Shown here piece after piece: positions 11,771 through 25,815 of a stretch of DNA of 64,000 nucleotides. The stretch lies in the NCBI RefSeq assembly GCF_054482595.1, contig NZ_CM137008.1; one strand, 5' to 3'. Under the pieces are notes generated by a model that was given only the letters and a program-made list of their open reading frames with translations, did not search any database and had not been told where the DNA came from. A program made the position numbers and the translations under genes. Each line of letters opens with the position of its first letter. The stretch's first letter is position 1.

Positions 11771-12841
11771 TTATTTAATCCGGGCCATCGCGTTTCTCAG
11801 TGCCAAATCTGCCTCTTCCGTTATATCCAGGCTTTTCTGCAATACCGCCTCTGACCGGGTCAGTGCCTGACGTGCTGCCAGCGGTTTCCGGATATGCTCC
11901 ATCGCCAGCATCGTGTCTTCATAGCCCTGCTGACGCCAGGCGTCGGTATGTGCCGATGTAAAACTGAGCAGACCGCCGCTGTTGCCACCATCACCTGCAT
12001 ATTTCAGCCTTTTCCGGGGACGGATCTCAAGGATTGTGGTGTCCGGAAAAGCCTGGCGATCCCATAAAGAACCGTCACTCAGATGCGTCACAATCACCAT
12101 ATTGCATCCGGCATCGACCAGAGGCGTCACAGGGGTATTTCCCTGCATATTTCGCCATCCTCCCATACCACCATCACCGAACATTGTCCCCTGAACCTCA
12201 CGGGGACGGAACAGCAGGGGCAGCGCGGCTGACGCAAGCAGAGCCTCTTTCTGCTGTCCGCGGGGCAGGCTCTGGATATGCTGAAAAACGGCGTTTTTCG
12301 TGGTTCCGACACCCAGTTCAGCACGAATGCAGTCAATAATATCCTGCATGCCCCCTTCTGTGGGGTACAGCGACACATACAGCGGTAGCCCGTCTGCCAG
12401 AGCATCAGTATCAAGATAATGATCCATCAGCGCTGTCAGGGGCTCATCTGACAACAACGGCTGAGCCATCAGATTGTCAAACCCGTTGATTGTCGATATA
12501 TGGCGAAGAAGCGTCGTAAGCAGTGCTCCTGCACGTCCGGGGATCTGGCAGAGGTTCATTGCCTGGAACAATTTTTTCAGCAATGAAAAGTAAACCAATC
12601 TGTTTACCGACAGCACCTGATTATTCCCCAGATGATCCCAGAGCGCCTCCAGGCGTACGGCAGCTTCTGACAGATCGGGAGAGGCCGCGATAATGGCACC
12701 ATTGAATGCGCCAATGCTGGCCCCTGAAACCATGCTGATCTGTGTACCACACTCTGCCAGTGCCTTAACCACTCCCGCCTGATAAGCGCCCACCGCCCCG
12801 CCACCGGACAGCACCAGCCCCGTTTTCATTTCTGTACTCAT
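11771..12841 (-). CDS. Patatin-like phospholipase
   Basis: GGGAVGAYQAG oxyanion-hole motif, GASIG (GxSxG) nucleophile, DGG motif (FGDGGMGG); start overlaps upstream stop (ATGA). Confidence 0.85.
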   Translation of the reverse strand: MSTEMKTGLVLSGGGAVGAYQAGVVKALAECGTQISMVSGASIGAFNGAIIAASPDLSEAAVRLEALWDHLGNNQVLSVNRLVYFSLLKKLFQAMNLCQIPGRAGALLTTLLRHISTINGFDNLMAQPLLSDEPLTALMDHYLDTDALADGLPLYVSLYPTEGGMQDIIDCIRAELGVGTTKNAVFQHIQSLPRGQQKEALLASAALPLLFRPREVQGTMFGDGGMGGWRNMQGNTPVTPLVDAGCNMVIVTHLSDGSLWDRQAFPDTTILEIRPRKRLKYAGDGGNSGGLLSFTSAHTDAWRQQGYEDTMLAMEHIRKPLAARQALTRSEAVLQKSLDITEEADLALRNAMARIK

Positions 12842-13743
12842 GCAGCCCCCTTCTGAAATATTTCATCGACCATACTTTCAGAGAGGCGTTCTGCAGAGCA
12901 GAGGCGAGGCATGCGAACCGGTAAGTGTTCTGCAGCCTGCGTGGTTGACCAGATCACCGGATGCTGCTCTTCACTGCACCAGTCTCCCAGCCAGTTAATC
13001 GCGTCATGCCACTCGTTATCTGCCTGCTCCCGGCCCTGACCACCAAGCCAGTCCAGAGTGTTCAGACGCACGGTTGCACTACCGCCACTCTCCTGTGCCA
13101 TCTGCGTTAATGCTTTATGTCTGAGAATATCCAGTAGCTGGTTAACCTGGCCTGTTTCGCCCTGACGTATCACATCACCAAACGCGCCCCAGCGAAGCTC
13201 TTCAAGTGCCACATAACAACGTCCGGCAGGGGAAAATGACGCATATCGCCCGGCGCTCCACCATGAGAATATCTGCTCAAGATGTAACTGCGCCCGCTGA
13301 ACCTGGTCAACACGGTGGAGTTTTTCTTCAAGATGATTCAGTTTATGGTGAACCTGATCGGCCAGGGTGAGTAACTGCTCCCGCGTATCTGCGGAATAAT
13401 GCGCCAGCCTGGCTGTATCACTGACCAGTGAACTGACCCTGTCGTTTACCCGGGTAATCGCGTAGTTTGTGGTGGCAAGTGACGTTGTCATCTCCGTCAG
13501 CCAGCGCAGGGACGCCTCAACGCCCTGTGCAAGCGACGCATTGATGGCATTCTGCCGTGCAGCGCCTTCGCCGGTCAGCCCCTCTTTTAAACGCCGGAAG
13601 AACGTGCGCTCTCCGGCCGTGCGGATATGCTCCTGTGCAACATCGATTCCGTTTGCGAAATCAACCACAAATTTTTCAGGAAGACAGGTGAGTACCTGAC
13701 ATACCCGGTTATCAGCAATTTGTTGAATAAATGGTGAAGTCAC
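12838..13743 (-). CDS. Hypothetical coiled-coil protein, middle gene of operon
   Basis: 301 aa, helical/heptad-rich, no recognised domain; ATGA overlaps with both neighbours. Confidence 0.7.
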   Translation of the reverse strand: MTSPFIQQIADNRVCQVLTCLPEKFVVDFANGIDVAQEHIRTAGERTFFRRLKEGLTGEGAARQNAINASLAQGVEASLRWLTEMTTSLATTNYAITRVNDRVSSLVSDTARLAHYSADTREQLLTLADQVHHKLNHLEEKLHRVDQVQRAQLHLEQIFSWWSAGRYASFSPAGRCYVALEELRWGAFGDVIRQGETGQVNQLLDILRHKALTQMAQESGGSATVRLNTLDWLGGQGREQADNEWHDAINWLGDWCSEEQHPVIWSTTQAAEHLPVRMPRLCSAERLSESMVDEIFQKGAA

Positions 13744-16136
13744 AGCATTGTCTCCAGCTCTTCCCTCAGCGCCTTACTGTCAGTAATGAGCTCAGGAACC
13801 CTTTCATTTAATGCCTGAAGTCGCCCGGTAAGTCGTTCCTGCGCCTGCTGATCGCGTTTATGATCCTCAGAGCTCTGAATCAGCGTGTTACGCAGTTGTT
13901 CAACTTTCTCCCTGAATGCGCAGAAAAAGGCATCGATTTCCTGGCGGACGGGCTGGTTAATATCCTGCTCAATGGATGCCTGCAGCTCCCCGAAATATGC
14001 CCGGGTCAGTGACATAACTTCCTCTCTGACCTTGTTGATATTGATCACGCTGCGACTCACATCCTCGTCATAGTTTTCCCAGCCCAGGTCACTGGTGCCA
14101 AACCATCGACAAACGGTTCCCCATACGCCACTCTGCCGACGGCGACGGGTGACGGTCTCCGTTCTTTCCTCCATAAGCGCACTCAGATTTATTTTTACCG
14201 CGAGCCGGGTCTGTAACTGGCTGACTGCCGGAAAACTGATTTTTACGGTAAAGCCCTCATCCTCCAGGCGGGCATTGATGCGACCGGCAATGTTTTCTGT
14301 GGCGTACAGGGCCGTGCCACGAAAACCTGTTTCAATCCCGCTGACGATTTTCTCCAGCTCAGGCCGGAACTGTGCTTCAGCCTCACGGTGCAGGCTGGTC
14401 ACGGTCGATTCGATTTGCGTCATCAGTTCAAGGGCTTCCCTGCGATCACTGAATTTTATTTCGGGGCTGTCCGGGGCAAAATCTCGTTTCCTGTAATCCT
14501 CCCGGCCCTGGTTGTTGATACCGGACCATTGAGAAATTTTCCCCCATAATCCGGACTGAGACCTTCGTTGTTCTGCGTCTTCTTCCTCCAGCATTTGCTG
14601 TTCTTTGCGTTTACCGCTTCTGAAATAGTCATTCAGCTCCTCTTCCAGTGAGGTGCAGACCCCCGTCAGTAATTCCCGGGTTTTAGTATCGATCTCCTCC
14701 ATGGCCATTCTGACATCAGTGGTCATCTGCTCCTGACAGTCCGCGATTTCCCGGATATCCGCAAGCAGGCTGGTGATATGCGACTGCAGTGACTGAATGC
14801 TTTGCTGTAGCCCCTGATGGCGTAACAACAGGTATTCACTGATATTTTCTGCATTCTGCATCAGTTTTGCGGCGGCAGAGTCAACCGCCAGTGCCGCAGC
14901 TCTGGAATGTGAGCTCTGTATGACTTCCGTTATCAGTTGATCGATAAGTGAGCCTTCCCACAGGTCTGTCGCCCCTTCAGTTGCCAGTTCACTGTCTTTA
15001 CAGACGTATTCTTTTTTCATGCAACCGAAGGCACCTCTGATAAAATCATCGACCCAGGCTTCATCAACAGGAAGGGTTCCGTTTTTCCGTAACTCATGAA
15101 GCGCACGGTTAGCCAGGTATGCCTGGCGTGAGGATCCGGGATAAACGCGGGAGGCGGGCAGCACATCGCTGTTCAGCATTGCCGGAACTTTCTGGCGTAC
15201 GGCATCTGCCCCATCGCCATTGCGGTCTTTCTCATCAAATTTATTGACCAGTACAAACAGGCGGCCGGCTGATACGTCAGCAATGGCATTAAGCTCTTTA
15301 CGGACGTCTTCATCCGCTTTTGAGTTCATCTGGGTGTAATCCATCACAGCCAGAACCGCAGAGGCTTTCTGCAGTTGATCCCGCATCATCACTTCCATCT
15401 GCGGTTGTCCGGCCTCATTAGGGCCGGGGGTATCCAGCAGTGTGAGTGTTCCCTGGCATGCATCCATCCCCACCAGATGGCTGAATTCCACGTCGATCAC
15501 CGGCAGTTTCTGCACTTCTGCGTATTCATCAAAAGGAAATTCAGTCCCCATTGCCGCAGCAAGACGAACCAGATCGTTTAACGATGCCAGTCCGGTAAAG
15601 ATTTCCTCCTCCCCGTGGTATTCATTTTTGAGCCAGCCATCATCCGTCAGAATATCCAGCAGTTCGCGGGTATCCCCGGTTTGCTGCAGGGTCTGTGCGA
15701 CCTGCTGTCCTGCCGGGGTGGCGAGTTTTTCCTGCAGTGTGATTAATAAATTGCGGACAGGCTGAATATGTTCCAGATGGAGAACCGGCTCAGTTTTTCC
15801 GGGAACGTGGCGGATGAGCGTCGGTACAGAGGTCATGGGGCGGTTACGGTTAGGCAGAATTTCCTGCCCCACAATGGCATTGATGGTGGTTGATTTGCCT
15901 GCTTTCATCGTGCCGACAACAGCCAGCACCATCTCCCTGCGGGCGGTTTTGATTTGTTCGCCCTCCAGCTCCTCAATTCTTTTCAGTGCTTTCTGTTTAT
16001 CAAAAAGCAGTCTGTTTTCGTTCTTACTGTCAGATAACACATCTGGCTCCTCAACCATTTGCCGGAGCAGATTAATGTTCAGTTGCAAAAGTCGGTCGGC
16101 TTCATCACAAAGCAGGGCGATGTTCTTTTCGTGCAT
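13740..16136 (-). CDS. Dynamin-like GTPase (bacterial dynamin family)
   Basis: 798 aa; G1 GTMKAGKST, G3 DTPG, G4 NKFD, long helical C-terminal region. Confidence 0.85.
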   Translation of the reverse strand: MHEKNIALLCDEADRLLQLNINLLRQMVEEPDVLSDSKNENRLLFDKQKALKRIEELEGEQIKTARREMVLAVVGTMKAGKSTTINAIVGQEILPNRNRPMTSVPTLIRHVPGKTEPVLHLEHIQPVRNLLITLQEKLATPAGQQVAQTLQQTGDTRELLDILTDDGWLKNEYHGEEEIFTGLASLNDLVRLAAAMGTEFPFDEYAEVQKLPVIDVEFSHLVGMDACQGTLTLLDTPGPNEAGQPQMEVMMRDQLQKASAVLAVMDYTQMNSKADEDVRKELNAIADVSAGRLFVLVNKFDEKDRNGDGADAVRQKVPAMLNSDVLPASRVYPGSSRQAYLANRALHELRKNGTLPVDEAWVDDFIRGAFGCMKKEYVCKDSELATEGATDLWEGSLIDQLITEVIQSSHSRAAALAVDSAAAKLMQNAENISEYLLLRHQGLQQSIQSLQSHITSLLADIREIADCQEQMTTDVRMAMEEIDTKTRELLTGVCTSLEEELNDYFRSGKRKEQQMLEEEDAEQRRSQSGLWGKISQWSGINNQGREDYRKRDFAPDSPEIKFSDRREALELMTQIESTVTSLHREAEAQFRPELEKIVSGIETGFRGTALYATENIAGRINARLEDEGFTVKISFPAVSQLQTRLAVKINLSALMEERTETVTRRRRQSGVWGTVCRWFGTSDLGWENYDEDVSRSVININKVREEVMSLTRAYFGELQASIEQDINQPVRQEIDAFFCAFREKVEQLRNTLIQSSEDHKRDQQAQERLTGRLQALNERVPELITDSKALREELETML

Positions 16137-16353: not shown

Positions 16354-17265
16354 TCAGAAGAAAATCCAGTTCCATACCGCGCGGGCAACAGAGACCACCG
16401 AGTCACGGACGGCGCGCAGAACCGTGCGTGCAACAGAGGCAATGCAGACGCTCTCCGCCGTGTCAAATATCCGGTCCACCGCACCGGTAAACTGTTCACG
16501 GGCCTGAGACCGGACAGACTCCGTGCGCAGCTCGTCCTGCAGGCGGGTCATCAGGGGACTGGCGGCATGGTCGGGAAGTGCTGTCATGAGCGCACTGACC
16601 AGCGTATCCAGTTCCCAGCCGGTGCGGGCCGATACGGCAACAACCCGATGTACGGGCCGGAACAGACGGAATACCGCCTCCGTTTTTTCGCGAATGTTCT
16701 GTGCCTGTGCGGGAGAAGGCTGAATACCGGCCATATCCCATTCATGGCAGGGCTCCGTTTTATCGGCCTGCATCACCACAAACAGTACCCGCTGATGTCC
16801 CCGGTGCAGGATGTGTCGCCAGAAATACTCATCCACAGACAGGGCACGGTCATCGGCTTTAATCAGCCACAGTACCAGGTCCAGTTCGGGCAGAATGTCA
16901 CGGTACAGGGCTTCATACTCTGCATCCCTGTCCCGGCTCTCGCCCACCCCGGGCAGGTCAGTGATAACCATGCTGTGACCATGGCCATTCAGACGGAAGC
17001 GCTGCACTTCCCGGGTGCCGGCGTGAACATCACTGACCGGGGTGACCTCCCCCTGAAACAGCGCATTACAGAGTGAGGATTTACCGGCCCCGCTTTTCCC
17101 CATAATGCCAATCACGGGTTCGTGACTGGTGAGTTTGCGCAGATGTTCCAGGATGTGACGGGAAAGTGAGTAAGGCAGGGAGGAGAGCGGTTTTTCGATT
17201 GCCTCAATGGCATCAGACGGATTCATACATGTATTCCCGGTGAAAAAAGACAAAACCCCGCGCAC
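16354..17265 (-). CDS. yeeP: YfjP/YeeP-family GTPase
   Basis: P-loop GIMGKSGAGKSS, DLPG, recognised YfjP/YeeP-like sequence; alternative start at MNPSD (17226). Confidence 0.8.
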   Translation of the reverse strand: MRGVLSFFTGNTCMNPSDAIEAIEKPLSSLPYSLSRHILEHLRKLTSHEPVIGIMGKSGAGKSSLCNALFQGEVTPVSDVHAGTREVQRFRLNGHGHSMVITDLPGVGESRDRDAEYEALYRDILPELDLVLWLIKADDRALSVDEYFWRHILHRGHQRVLFVVMQADKTEPCHEWDMAGIQPSPAQAQNIREKTEAVFRLFRPVHRVVAVSARTGWELDTLVSALMTALPDHAASPLMTRLQDELRTESVRSQAREQFTGAVDRIFDTAESVCIASVARTVLRAVRDSVVSVARAVWNWIFF

Positions 17266-17309: not shown

Positions 17310-18473
17310 TTATCTGGAATCGATTTGGCTGTTCTGCCTGGTTGCCACCAAATCATGGTACGCCTGCTCAATCATTTCATTCAGCAGTTTTTTTGGGAGG
17401 ACACCACGACTTCGGGCAATACTTTCAAGCTGTTTGTGGATTTTTCCGGACAGTTTCAGAGGGACGGAACCATCAGCACGTTCATCACGCCTTTTTTGTT
17501 GCTCCCGGGCACTTTTCAGCTCATCAAGAAGAATCGCTTTATGCTGAATCCTGGGGGCCTGGAAGGAGACCTGCGTAAACTTCGCTCTGTTCCGTCTGGG
17601 ATTACTTTCCAGTAAAAACTGTACCTGTTGCTCATTCCAGCCCTCCCAGTTATCAAACGTGGCGCAGGCAAACCAGTATTTCTGCTCCGGGGTAAGGGGA
17701 TTCAGCGGGGTTCCCACACACCGGACCTGCATGGCGTTCCATAACCAGTCACACTGTTCACTGTCCCTGCTGTCCACCCACGAAAAGGGGGAGGGGTAAT
17801 CATTGTTTATGCTGGCCCATTCAGAGAATACTGAGTTGATAATCGTCCTCGTAGCCTCTGGTCCGGATTTCAGCAGGTAACTGGAGCAGAACCATATAAT
17901 TTCACGGTAGATTTTATCCGGATGCACGGTGCGCATCGGCTTTTCTCTGGGACCGGCAATCTTCGGTTGCGATGGAAACCCCGTGGCAAACCGCAGATGT
18001 TCCGGGGGCATTCCTGAACGTTTTTCAGGAATGGGTGTGAGTCCTGCGTTTCTGGTCTTTTCCGCTTGTCCGGTATTGCCTCCGGCCGGAGTGTTGTCGG
18101 GAGTATCTTCCGGAGGCGAGGTGTTTTCATTAGTTGGGGGAACAACAGCAGAACTGTCCATCTCCGGAATGGGTTGAGGGGCATAATCACTGTGGTAGCC
18201 AGGGGAAAGCGTTAAGTCCCGAAGGGTGACATCAGGTTCCGGGCAGTGAGTGCCACCGGGAGTGAACGGGAGTTGTTGCTTTTGGGAGAAAAATGTATTG
18301 TGAATGCGGGTATACAGCTGGAACAGAAAAAAATAAGATGCCCGTGGTTCTTTTTTTAACCACTGTGTATATTCCTCTATGGCACCGAGCTGTTGTTTGT
18401 GCCGTTTTACAGCATCGATATACGGACAGCTGGTGCAGATATCATCCAGTTCCTTTCCCACAATACACCTCAC
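17310..18473 (-). CDS. Hypothetical protein with Pro/Thr-rich low-complexity linker
   Basis: 387 aa ORF upstream of GTPase on same strand; central stretch PPTNENTSPPEDTPDNTPAGGNTGQ; no recognised domain. Confidence 0.55.
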   Translation of the reverse strand: MRCIVGKELDDICTSCPYIDAVKRHKQQLGAIEEYTQWLKKEPRASYFFLFQLYTRIHNTFFSQKQQLPFTPGGTHCPEPDVTLRDLTLSPGYHSDYAPQPIPEMDSSAVVPPTNENTSPPEDTPDNTPAGGNTGQAEKTRNAGLTPIPEKRSGMPPEHLRFATGFPSQPKIAGPREKPMRTVHPDKIYREIIWFCSSYLLKSGPEATRTIINSVFSEWASINNDYPSPFSWVDSRDSEQCDWLWNAMQVRCVGTPLNPLTPEQKYWFACATFDNWEGWNEQQVQFLLESNPRRNRAKFTQVSFQAPRIQHKAILLDELKSAREQQKRRDERADGSVPLKLSGKIHKQLESIARSRGVLPKKLLNEMIEQAYHDLVATRQNSQIDSR

Positions 18474-19591
18474 CTGCTTTTCTCACATTTGCAGATTTTA
18501 AAAAAGCAAACAAAAACCTCCGTACATGATGTACAGAACAATCTACCAGGTAGTGGCGTCAGAAAACCTCCGGGCCGCCTGCACTTTCCGGAATGCGCCG
18601 GTTATGAAAAACCGGAAATTCAGTCTCTGTTGTAAGATGTACCCTCTGATACTACGTTTTCTCTGTGTATTTAACTCACTGTATTTATTGTCTTTTTAAG
18701 CTTGACTAATATTCTCCGGTCATAGTGTGCCGGATACACATCCCGTAAACTTCTCATTTTTATATAAAAATACCTGCACTCTCTTCAGCGCATCTGTCTC
18801 CTTTAAGTAAAAAATGTTTTTACGTATTGCTGTAAATTCATTTTAAATCAGTATATTACCTTGATATTGCTGTCTCCTGGTTTGATGCGTAATCGTTCTG
18901 CCTTTCTGGATGATTCTGGTGCTTCCGGGTGCATTCTCCTCTGCACATGCAACAGTTCGTCATCGCCACGCTCCCAAAAAGCATATAAAAACGAATCGAA
19001 TTTGATATTTTTTTCAATCGTTTTTCATAGGAATTTCGTAGGGTATTCTCCGCTATAACCTCCATATTTGCTGTCTTTTTCTTCATAAATCGTATGCAAT
19101 GTAGCCTGTCTGTCAAGACCTCTTCTCTGCTGTTGAGGAGACGATCTCATTTTTGGTCTTTTCCGGGAGAGAGGCTGTCAGATGAGCGAGCCGGATATAC
19201 TGTCAGAGGTACACCCCGTAGCAGACCTGTGCTCCCATTTCCGCGATCCGGAACCAACAACACCCTACGGTTAATACCATTTGAAGCGTCAGGTACTGCA
19301 GGAAGTTCCCCCCTGCGCGGACATCGGTTCCTGCCGACATCTCACAATACGGCCAGACTGTCATGCAGTAACACCCGCATGCGGTCTGCGGTTTTAAGCG
19401 CACTCTCCCGTTTTCAGTGCATCGATAATGCGTCATAGTAAGTCTGGGGGAAGTTACGGAATGCCTGTTAAGTGGTGCCGTGGGTGGAGACAGCTTACTT
19501 TTCTACAGCAACTGCAGTCATTCAGGATGATCAGGAGATATTCTGTCAATGTCACGATCCTGCCATTTTCGTACCCGCTAAGATACTTCCG

Positions 19592-21951
<2,360 letters not shown>

Positions 21952-22813: not shown

Positions 22814-23431
22814 TCAACTGTGAGCGGCATCAACCGATGTACGGTATGCCATAAGCACGTACTGATCCATCAGATTTGTCAGTGGTTCACTCTGACCCTG
22901 ACGTGCAATGATCCATTGCTCCAGATCTTTTTCTGATTTGTGTTTCAGGTTTTTCGTCCAGTCGTCAAGGCTGTTTCCGGTCATTAAGTCAAGCCAGCAG
23001 AGCCAGACCAGTTTGAGACGTAACTCCGTGCCGCCAAACTGACGGAAGAGGCTGATCAGTTTGTTTGCCAGAGAATGTTGCTTCAGGCGCTCACATTCAG
23101 ACAGCAGGATCCCTTCCAGCATCGGATGATGAACCAGCAGGTGTTCGCTGGTGCATAAATTCACCACCAGATCATCATCCAGGGACGGGGAGCTCCGTTT
23201 GTCCGGACCATAAATCAGCCGGTGCAGACTCTGGGGAACGATGGCAATCTCCGGTTTTTCGCCATTGAATGACACCCACCCGGGCGTCAGATTATGGAAA
23301 TAGTAGATATTCGGATGACACACGCCCCATGATACGGCGTGCCGGGTGAAGCCGGTCAGCCATTTCTGGTAGTTTTCATGGAGCAGCTCGTAACGGGTCT
23401 GATACTGTTGTTTCATTTTCATATTCCTCAC
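22814..23431 (-). CDS. Hypothetical protein (island backbone, downstream of alpA)
   Basis: 205 aa ORF, GTG start, no recognised domain. Confidence 0.5.
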   Translation of the reverse strand: MRNMKMKQQYQTRYELLHENYQKWLTGFTRHAVSWGVCHPNIYYFHNLTPGWVSFNGEKPEIAIVPQSLHRLIYGPDKRSSPSLDDDLVVNLCTSEHLLVHHPMLEGILLSECERLKQHSLANKLISLFRQFGGTELRLKLVWLCWLDLMTGNSLDDWTKNLKHKSEKDLEQWIIARQGQSEPLTNLMDQYVLMAYRTSVDAAHS

Positions 23432-23509: not shown

Positions 23510-23716
23510 TTACAGACGGGACTGTGCAATACGCGCCTGCAGCCAGGCTTCCACTTCACTTTTCAGCCAGCGGGAGCTGCGCCCCATTTTGATGGGCGCA
23601 GGAAAGCCCCCATCTTTGATGAGTTTGTCAAACCACTTATCGGTAAGGCCGGTCAGTTGAGTGATAAACGCCATGTCGACCATCTGGTCATCCATCAGCG
23701 AAACTGGGGTAGCCAT
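23510..23716 (-). CDS. alpA: AlpA-family phage transcriptional regulator/excisionase-like protein
   Basis: 68 aa from internal Met (MATPVSLMDDQMVDMAFITQLTGLTDKWF...); track ORF 23510..23920 is N-terminally extended through a poly-G tract. Confidence 0.8.
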   Translation of the reverse strand: MATPVSLMDDQMVDMAFITQLTGLTDKWFDKLIKDGGFPAPIKMGRSSRWLKSEVEAWLQARIAQSRL

Positions 23717-25209: not shown

Positions 25210-25815
25210 GTGGCTATTCCGTATGAACCATACGGAGATTTAACCATGACCTACAAATACAACCCCTTCTGGCAGCAACGTATTCGTGAGACGGTGCGGC
25301 ACGCACTGAATGTTCATCCCCGCCTGACGGCATTGCGGGTTGACCTGCGTTTCCCGGATGTACCGGCAGCAACGGACGCAGCTGTGATATCCCGCTTCAT
25401 CAATGCCCTGAAAGCCCGAATCGACGCTTACCAGAAACGTAAGCATCGGGAAGGTAAACGCGTGCATCCCACAACCCTGCATTACGTCTGGGCCCGGGAG
25501 TTTGGGGAGTGCAAAGGTAAAAAACACTATCACCTGATGCTGCTGGTTAACCGGGATACCTGGTGTCGTGCCGGTGATTACCGTGCTCCGGGATCACTGG
25601 CCGGGATGATTAAACAGGCGTGGTGCAGTGCCCTGGGAGTGGATGTCGGGTGCCATGCCACGCTGGTGCATTTCCCGGCCTGGCCGGCGGTGTGGCTGGA
25701 ACGCGATGATGACACTGGCTTTCAGCAGGTGCTGGAACGTGCTGACTATCTGGCGAAGGAACATACCAAAGCTCACTGCACCGGTGAGCGCAATTTTGGC
25801 TGTAGCCGGAGTTGA
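25210..25815 (+). CDS. YfjJ/YagK-family protein (inovirus Gp2-like)
   Basis: 201 aa resembling YagK/YfjJ family of CP4 islands; alternative start MTYKYNPF at 25246. Confidence 0.65.
   Translation: MAIPYEPYGDLTMTYKYNPFWQQRIRETVRHALNVHPRLTALRVDLRFPDVPAATDAAVISRFINALKARIDAYQKRKHREGKRVHPTTLHYVWAREFGECKGKKHYHLMLLVNRDTWCRAGDYRAPGSLAGMIKQAWCSALGVDVGCHATLVHFPAWPAVWLERDDDTGFQQVLERADYLAKEHTKAHCTGERNFGCSRS

Follow-up and report, generated by a model that had tools for sequence, protein, structure and literature searches.

The 64-kb window analyzed here (64,000 nucleotides of contig NZ_CM137008.1) contains an island at the CP4-44 site, flanked by tmaR and cobU. The minus strand of this island carries, at positions 17310..18473, an open reading frame (ORF) of 387 amino acids (aa), counted from a GTG codon, whose product is labeled hypothetical or uncharacterized by all sources (UniProt A0A066R9Q2); the accession is not mentioned in any paper, and we found no paper describing the gene. 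The initial annotation, made from the letters of the window, had placed the ORF on the same strand as, and directly upstream of, a YeeP-like GTPase gene, and this was borne out, with a gap of 44 to 83 nucleotides (nt), depending on the GTPase start chosen. The ORF leads a codirectional block, in which the GTPase gene, a cargo section, and DUF932, ArdB, RadC, and CbeA-CbtA genes follow. Our analysis shows that the ORF is a real, constrained protein-coding gene and a widespread backbone gene of CP4-type Escherichia coli islands, and it points to a ribbon-helix-helix (RHH) DNA-binding domain at the C terminus of the encoded protein.

The Prokaryotic Genome Annotation Pipeline (PGAP) calls the same gene from a second in-frame GTG, at 18461, 12 nt downstream of the start of the longest ORF at 18473, and names the resulting protein (WP_000514100.1) "hypothetical protein." Since a Shine-Dalgarno sequence (GGTGAGG) sits 6 nt 5' of GTG 18461, and since the paralogue in island L006 (79% identical) contains no in-frame counterpart of the first GTG, the downstream codon is more likely the true start. 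Residue numbers throughout refer to the 387-aa form.

Predicted domains of the protein

Searches of Pfam, NCBIfam, PHROGs, PADLOC, and the Protein Data Bank (PDB) sequences with the ORF protein itself gave no usable match (in PADLOC, no family matched at an E value of ≤0.01), and to that extent the original statement that the protein has no recognizable domain stands. More sensitive methods, however, indicate an RHH domain at the C terminus. Pfam family PF10723 (RepB-RCR_reg), a family of the RHH clan (Met_repress), matches the C termini of five distant family members, of which only P0083, with 21.7 bits, lies above the gathering cutoff of 21; one family member matches RHH_1 (PF01402) as well. 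A profile built from the 88 C-terminal columns of the alignment retrieved 14 PDB chains, all subthreshold, nine of which are recognizable as RHH proteins (four CopG chains, Reg576, MazE7, SIRV protein 56B, and two MatP chains). When aligned by hhalign with CopG of pMV158 (probability of 66%; E value of 5.5e-5), the strand, helix A, and helix B are in register, and residues S336, P338, and K340 fall on R4, T6, and T8 of CopG. The segment displays the sequence signature of the RHH superfamily, i.e., a strand (VPLKLS, aa 337 to 342), helix A (aa 343 to 356), a tight turn, and helix B (from aa 360, reaching aa 386 in the AlphaFold2 model), and in the modeled monomer, two helices come after an extended segment, in an arrangement that can be superposed on RHH proteins of solved structure. 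Because these signals agree, each of them weak singly, we consider it very probable that aa 337 to 376 constitute an RHH domain of the CopG/Arc/MetJ kind.

The remainder of the protein was assessed with a full-length AlphaFold2 model of the monomer, built from a 31-sequence alignment (mean predicted local distance difference test [pLDDT] value of 77.9; predicted template modeling score [pTM] of 0.69). The central Pro/Thr-rich, disordered linker noted at the outset is clearly present: aa 67 to 155 contain 16 prolines and 11 threonines in 89 residues, with a net charge of -7, and the model is disordered over aa 76 to 141, with pLDDT values below 50 over aa 80 to 141. Equally, the C-terminal part is indeed basic, with 17 lysines and arginines among the last 81 residues and a net charge of +6. 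Upstream of the linker, a helical hairpin with the conserved motif W38-L-K-x3-R44-A-x2-F-F-x-F-x-L is predicted to pack with the core domain, which in the model contains a helical bundle with a Trp-rich core at aa 185 to 300; the motif that directly follows the linker (aa 156 to 165) has "ANG" as its family consensus. When the linker and the C terminus are cropped away, the remaining residues (aa 5 to 72 plus 150 to 306) are modeled as a single, compact, all-alpha unit (pLDDT of 82.7; pTM of 0.79); the linker thus interrupts one domain instead of tethering two. As modeled, the N-terminal hairpin and the Trp-rich bundle together form a previously undescribed all-alpha domain into which the linker is inserted. 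A Foldseek search of the full model against the PDB returned nothing significant, and a full-length profile run against the PDB gave only two chance-level matches. A resemblance of the N-terminal domain to the death-fold superfamily (PYD/CARD/DED/DD) is a lead only; neither the ORF protein nor any of 31 family members has a Pfam match to that superfamily.

The linker is the most changeable part of the protein. It is wholly absent from short family members of 288 to 314 aa, and relative to the L006 paralogue, it shows 63% nucleotide identity, with nonsynonymous (Ka) and synonymous (Ks) divergences of 0.46 and 0.70, respectively, versus approximately 95% identity, a Ka of 0.04, and a Ks of 0.08 for aa 156 to 387. 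This divergence at both synonymous and nonsynonymous sites suggests either that the linker has undergone mosaic or allelic exchange or that its flanks have been homogenized.

The initial annotation had left the choice between a regulator and an anchoring protein. The protein has neither a signal-peptide-like N terminus nor a hydrophobic segment (maximum 19-residue Kyte-Doolittle mean of 0.4), and on hydropathy we rejected a membrane anchor; a role as a regulator is favored over one as an anchoring protein because the C terminus is a predicted RHH DNA-binding domain, and it also fits the position of the gene beside the alpA module described below. A zinc-binding N terminus was likewise rejected: the N-terminal CxxC is kept only within the E. 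coli clade and not in orthologues of 30% identity, and the cysteines that had been singled out as a feature of this part are therefore not a feature of the family.

Distribution of the family and gene neighborhood

The window is from E. coli, and the 1.5-kb region that includes the ORF is found with 100% identity in many complete genomes of this species. At least 80% of this 1.5-kb query is present in 1959 of 5426 complete E. coli genomes and some match to it in 4157, with a median of two places per genome; at least 1000 contigs encode the identical 383-aa protein. Beyond this species, the family is very small and confined to Enterobacterales. When 1.84 billion representatives were scanned exhaustively with HMMER, 61 proteins were retrieved, many of which are fragments; a pattern scan of one genome each from 100,044 species yielded three loci (Serratia, Hafnia, and Enterobacter), and family members were also found in Citrobacter and Cronobacter. 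Plasmids and phages are essentially devoid of the family (3 of 72,556 and 0 of 50,697 records, respectively), and on these counts we rejected a plasmid or phage origin.

Orthologues from Citrobacter, Cronobacter, Serratia, and Hafnia share 27 to 31% identity with the ORF protein, are 316 to 370 aa long, and keep the same domain order and gene neighborhood. Across these orthologues, W219, W232, W243, and D274 are invariant, and W38, R44, F230, W245, F273, W276, K312, A322, Q325, R329, and L349 are nearly so. The ORF is not a chance reading frame, because such distant orthologues retain its length, domain order, and neighborhood.

Synteny, which had been proposed as a check, was read in 11 contexts, including eight of the long form and two informative ones of the short form (L009 and L019). 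An alpA gene adjoins the family gene in 9 of the 11; outside E. coli, it is present in 7 of 9 loci and is divergent from the ORF there, and alpA-adjacent loci usually carry a yagK/yfjJ gene too. Among the long forms outside E. coli, alpA is divergent, with no yagK called, in L003 and L004 (Citrobacter koseri type, by protein name); it is followed by a 197-aa gene and yagK in L005 and by yagK in L011; and in L012 a divergent 82-aa gene and a G2P-like gene come before alpA and yagK. The Serratia (L013) and Hafnia (L014) loci each have a divergent 68-aa ORF that is alpA-like by size only and a 291-aa ORF as the GTPase gene. In the short-form locus L009, a divergent yagK is followed by alpA, and the ORF lies between the integrase gene and yagK; in L019, a divergent alpA is followed by a G2P-like gene, and the ORF is the last gene of the island. 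In both, the ORF stands as a lone gene at the island end, and where that end was read (L009), a P4-family integrase gene lies beside the module. On a 3.9-kb contig (L020), neither alpA nor yagK is found beside the ORF. The intergenic region between the divergent alpA and the ORF measures 500 to 800 bp in L003, L005, L011, L013, L014, and L019.

A GTPase gene is found downstream in 8 of 8 long forms, versus 0 of 2 short forms, which are without the linker. The ORF has, moreover, been lost from E. coli K-12 and O157:H7 with the GTPase gene retained, truncated to a pseudogene in the former and intact in the latter. A necessary link between the ORF and the GTPase is not supported; across the contexts read, the alpA module is the most widespread associate of the family, and the GTPase gene accompanies the linker-bearing long forms.

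Several further observations concern the islands themselves. Past alpA/yagK lies a variable region (2831-6837 in L003, 1-6332 in L005, and 1-1907 in L009) with different defense cargo in each island; the cargo in these regions comprises a Gabija-like OLD-TOPRIM protein plus UvrD helicase, type I restriction-modification, and BREX. In the window, L003, L005, L006, L013, and L014, alpA is always followed by a gene for a protein of 197 to 200 aa; the 200-aa protein has no Pfam family and represents a further unannotated backbone gene. An intact IS100 insertion sequence (IS) and an IS21 relic separate alpA from the ORF in the window (Table 1), and a gene-free stretch of approximately 1.1 kb lies between the relic and the ORF; L006 to L008 are without IS100. 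Fragments of an IstB/IS21-like ATPase gene recur near the alpA/yagK module in islands from different clades (19592-19729 in the window, 8689-9122 in L006, and 4200-4604 in L019); instead of having inserted recently, they may be old relics or represent a gene that has been retained.

On the 3' side of the GTPase gene, cargo at 11771-16136 (minus strand) encodes a 798-aa dynamin, a YjcZ/RdcB-family protein, and a patatin phospholipase. The dynamin is CrfC/RdcA-like (NF007368 E value of 1.2e-166, yet below the NF007368 cutoff), and PADLOC gave weak matches only, to LeoBC for the dynamin and to phospholipase effectors for the patatin. In other islands (L006 and O157), this trio comes after Ag43 or Cah. 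The patatin gene is followed, on the same strand, by two hypothetical genes and those for DUF932, ArdB, RadC, YeeT, and CbeA/CbtA. In the paralogous E. coli islands, the gene order is the same, except that IS100 is missing and an Ag43-type autotransporter gene follows the GTPase gene.

Table 1. Positions of the gene, predicted parts of its product, and surrounding features in the window
Feature	Position	Strand	Basis or remark
Coding sequence, likeliest form	17310..18461	minus	383 aa; GTG start at 18461, stop codon at 17310-17312
N-terminal helical hairpin (predicted), aa 19-66	18276..18419	minus	AlphaFold2 and family alignment
Pro/Thr-rich disordered linker, aa 67-155	18009..18275	minus	Hypervariable, acidic; composition, AlphaFold2, paralogue comparison
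Motif P-P-E-x-L-x-F-A-x-G, aa 156-165	17979..18008	minus	Conserved; pLDDT of ~80
Long basic helix (predicted), aa 307-336, motif HKxxLLxELxKAWxQKxxR	17466..17555	minus	AlphaFold2 (29 residues, aa 308-336), family alignment
C-terminal RHH DNA-binding domain (predicted), aa 337-376	17346..17465	minus	Pfam, PDB profile, hhalign, AlphaFold2
Imperfect palindrome TCTGTACATCATGTACGGA, then T-run	18518..18538	minus	Terminator-like score; 57 nt before start codon
Candidate operator CTACGAAATTC-CTATG, two 11-bp-phased direct repeats (CTAYR-N6-CTAYR)	19026..19041	minus	Pattern match
Sigma-70-like promoter match TTGACA-16-TACGAT, 10/12	19089..19116	minus	48 nt 5' of repeats; conserved in L006
P-loop GTPase gene, YeeP/YfjP/YkfA type	16354..17226/17265	minus	MMR_HSR1, E value of 2.4e-15
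IS100 (istA/istB), intact	20084..21885		Between alpA module and ORF upstream region
200-aa hypothetical gene after alpA	22814..23416	minus	Annotation
alpA (Phage_AlpA helix-turn-helix)	23510..23716	minus	Upstream of ORF, codirectional, ~5 kb off
YagK/YfjJ ("inovirus Gp2 family") gene, same module	25246..25815	plus	Weak REP_ORF2-G2P match

Upstream region and candidate operator

RHH proteins such as Arc, CopG, MetJ, omega, and ParG typically bind phased tandem subsites. When six divergent intergenic regions were aligned, the mean column identity was 45%, and two conserved blocks stood out, one by alpA and the other, nearer the ORF, consisting of direct repeats in an 11-bp phase. These repeats read CTACGAATTTT/CTACGTATTTA/AATCGAAATTA/CTATGAATTTT in L003 and CTACGTTTTTA/CTACGTTTTTG in L012. 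On the strand of the gene, the pattern CTAYR-N6-CTAYR is found 5' of the ORF in seven further loci of long-form clades, L003/L004, L005, L006 to L008, L012, L013, L014, and L015, with one additional, off-target match downstream in L003/L004. The 64-kb window holds a single match, versus approximately 0.93 expected by chance over the whole window and both strands. The palindrome closer to the start codon could be an attenuator or operator.

The promoter match and the phased repeats lie within an apparently noncoding stretch of approximately 430 bp (18770-19200, minus strand) that ends at a terminator-like hairpin (18792-18775). This stretch is 97 to 99% identical to the L006 island and is more conserved than the ORF itself (86.5% nucleotide identity to L006). 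Two candidates for a product of it were rejected: a structured noncoding RNA, with no Rfam match and a fold z-score of -0.08, and a small protein gene, for which an ORF of 75 to 86 aa is open in both copies and most substitutions alter the amino acid.

Proposed role and comparison with known systems

On these grounds, the protein is best explained as a soluble, modular part of the conserved CP4-type island backbone in Enterobacterales, and we propose, with moderate confidence and from sequence features, that it acts as an RHH DNA-binding regulator of that backbone. By analogy with other RHH proteins, it would dimerize through the ribbon, and the dimer would bind the helically phased CTAYR-N6-CTAYR repeats (11-bp register) 5' of its own gene. 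Such binding would autoregulate the backbone operon and, possibly, the neighboring, alpA-led excision and replication genes. The N-terminal all-alpha domain would serve as an oligomerization or signal- or partner-binding part, an input that in the long forms may be supplied by the linker and the adjacent GTPase.

A number of observations weigh against such a regulator. In the monomer model, aa 337 to 342 are coil, and the ribbon strand is unformed; the RHH ribbon takes shape only in the dimer, from two antiparallel strands. The repeats in L011 (ATTACTA) keep the same 11-bp register and differ from CTAYR in sequence, and no equivalent of the phased repeats was seen in the short-form loci. The distance from the repeats to the start codon is approximately 565 nt in E. 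coli versus approximately 90 to 150 nt in other genera, and AlpA or a host factor could equally be the ligand of the repeats. Lastly, the Ka/Ks ratio between two E. coli paralogues (0.33 to 0.58 in the folded parts, from few substitutions) is only moderately below 1.

Among other readings, we regard it as unlikely that the protein is an origin or relaxosome accessory, whose RHH domain would bind iterons at an origin used by the excised island for replication or transfer, together with YagK/YfjJ or as its regulator, after the models of CopG or RepB regulators with a rolling-circle initiator or of TraY/TraM at oriT. The best Pfam signal is, admittedly, that of a family of rolling-circle replication regulators, the module of the window, like that of most related loci, encodes a YagK/YfjJ protein with a weak REP_ORF2-G2P match, the phased repeats lie in A/T-rich DNA and resemble iterons, and the downstream backbone genes for DUF932, ArdB, and RadC resemble plasmid leading-region genes. 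However, the family is nearly missing from plasmid records and missing from phages, as given above, yagK in E. coli is approximately 7 kb off, beyond alpA, no nick-site-like sequence or oriT was identified, and no relaxase or recognizable HUH nickase motif turned up, in the course of work that included no test aimed at one. A DNA-organizing or segregation adaptor that loads on the phased repeats through its RHH domain and recruits or stimulates the GTPase, modeled on ParR/ParG/TubR or MatP, appears highly unlikely. Such an adaptor would account for the GTPase gene being the immediate downstream neighbor in every long-form context, and the combination of a helical domain with an RHH domain is a MatP-like architecture; MatP was also found weakly by profile (E value of 0.2, with the basic stretch before the strand included) and at Foldseek rank 2, over 131 aligned columns. 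These MatP signals are nevertheless not significant (Foldseek E value of 6.4; hhalign probability against E. coli MatP of 12%), there is no Pfam MatP match (PF06303/PF17414) at an E value of ≤0.1, and a search for matS near the gene found no matS-like site; the hhalign value and the missing site led us to reject homology to MatP. Furthermore, the gene order is opposite to that of par operons, short-form members are without the GTPase, and it is not obvious why an integrated island would require partitioning.

The same GTPase neighbor underlies a reading that we consider less probable still, namely, that the RHH protein neutralizes and represses a harmful GTPase as the antitoxin or immunity partner of a toxin-antitoxin or defense pair. 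An RHH gene followed by its partner is indeed the order of toxin-antitoxin operons, the GTPase is weakly similar to Leo dynamin-like defense GTPases (LeoBC; E value of 8.6e-9), and the islands bear defense cargo of the kinds listed above. Yet a 383-aa protein with a C-terminal RHH domain is the reverse of antitoxin architecture (small, with an N-terminal RHH domain and a toxin-binding tail) and does not conform to a type II RHH antitoxin, no PADLOC model matches it, partnerless short forms exist, and the survival of a GTPase gene without the ORF, truncated in K-12 and intact in O157:H7, would be unexpected for a toxin. Finally, the absence of a name in the databases and of a Pfam family, along with a Ka/Ks of close paralogues that is not markedly below 1, might have been taken to mean that there is no functional gene at all and that the ORF arose by chance, is decaying into a pseudogene, or joins pieces of known backbone genes. 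This is barely conceivable, being contradicted by the conservation data (full-length orthologues of 27 to 31% identity in five genera, with invariant tryptophans and an invariant aspartate and with conserved synteny); the AlphaFold2 models of the full-length protein and of the cropped domain are, in addition, confident, and no part of the ORF matches another backbone gene. Neither a noncoding region nor a fusion of backbone genes, the two outcomes that would have overturned the initial annotation, was thus encountered.

Should the protein be an RHH regulator of the island backbone, a more far-reaching version can be sketched, which we consider decidedly unlikely: a master switch of CP4-type islands, combining a death-fold-like sensor or oligomerization domain, an RHH domain on phased repeats, and a YeeP-family GTPase. 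In such a switch, the ORF protein and the GTPase would decide when the excision, transfer, and antirestriction backbone is expressed; if true, it would provide the first function for the YeeP/YfjP/YkfA GTPases, which are found in most E. coli genomes. CP4-type islands themselves occur, often more than once, in the majority of E. coli genomes and contain adhesins such as Ag43 and Cah, toxin-antitoxin pairs, antirestriction genes, and changing defense cargo. The ORF is one of their few backbone genes without annotation, and the predicted RHH domain, the position by alpA, and the candidate operator turn it into a testable regulator. The result offers a lead on the YeeP/YfjP/YkfA GTPases and is a useful advance in annotation rather than a surprise.

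Known systems resemble the ORF protein in part. Like MatP, it occurs only in enterobacteria and relatives and comprises an all-alpha domain, a basic stretch, and an RHH domain, in this order, but it does not present the combination of a four-helix bundle, an RHH domain, and a C-terminal coiled coil acting on matS. In comparison with TraM and TraY of F-like plasmids, its domain order is opposite to that of TraM, and its family is essentially absent from plasmids. The master regulators of islands and prophages (Stl of Staphylococcus aureus pathogenicity islands and cI-type repressors) offer a parallel in genetic layout: outside E. coli, the ORF is divergent from the alpA/yagK excision and replication genes, it is found beside the integrase gene as a lone gene (L009) or as the last island gene (L019), and its product is of two parts, a predicted DNA-binding domain and a larger domain that possibly senses a partner. 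Those regulators, however, have helix-turn-helix rather than RHH domains and no sequence or fold kinship with the ORF protein; in E. coli, moreover, alpA is codirectional with the ORF and lies approximately 5 kb off. Within the CopG/Arc/MetJ superfamily itself, RHH domains make up proteins of 45 to 100 aa or form N-terminal modules, whereas here the domain is the C terminus of a 383-aa protein, the other approximately 300 residues of which have no counterpart in known RHH proteins. What is new, then, is a predicted member of the RHH superfamily with a novel architecture, joined to an undescribed domain and encoded by a very common, unstudied gene.

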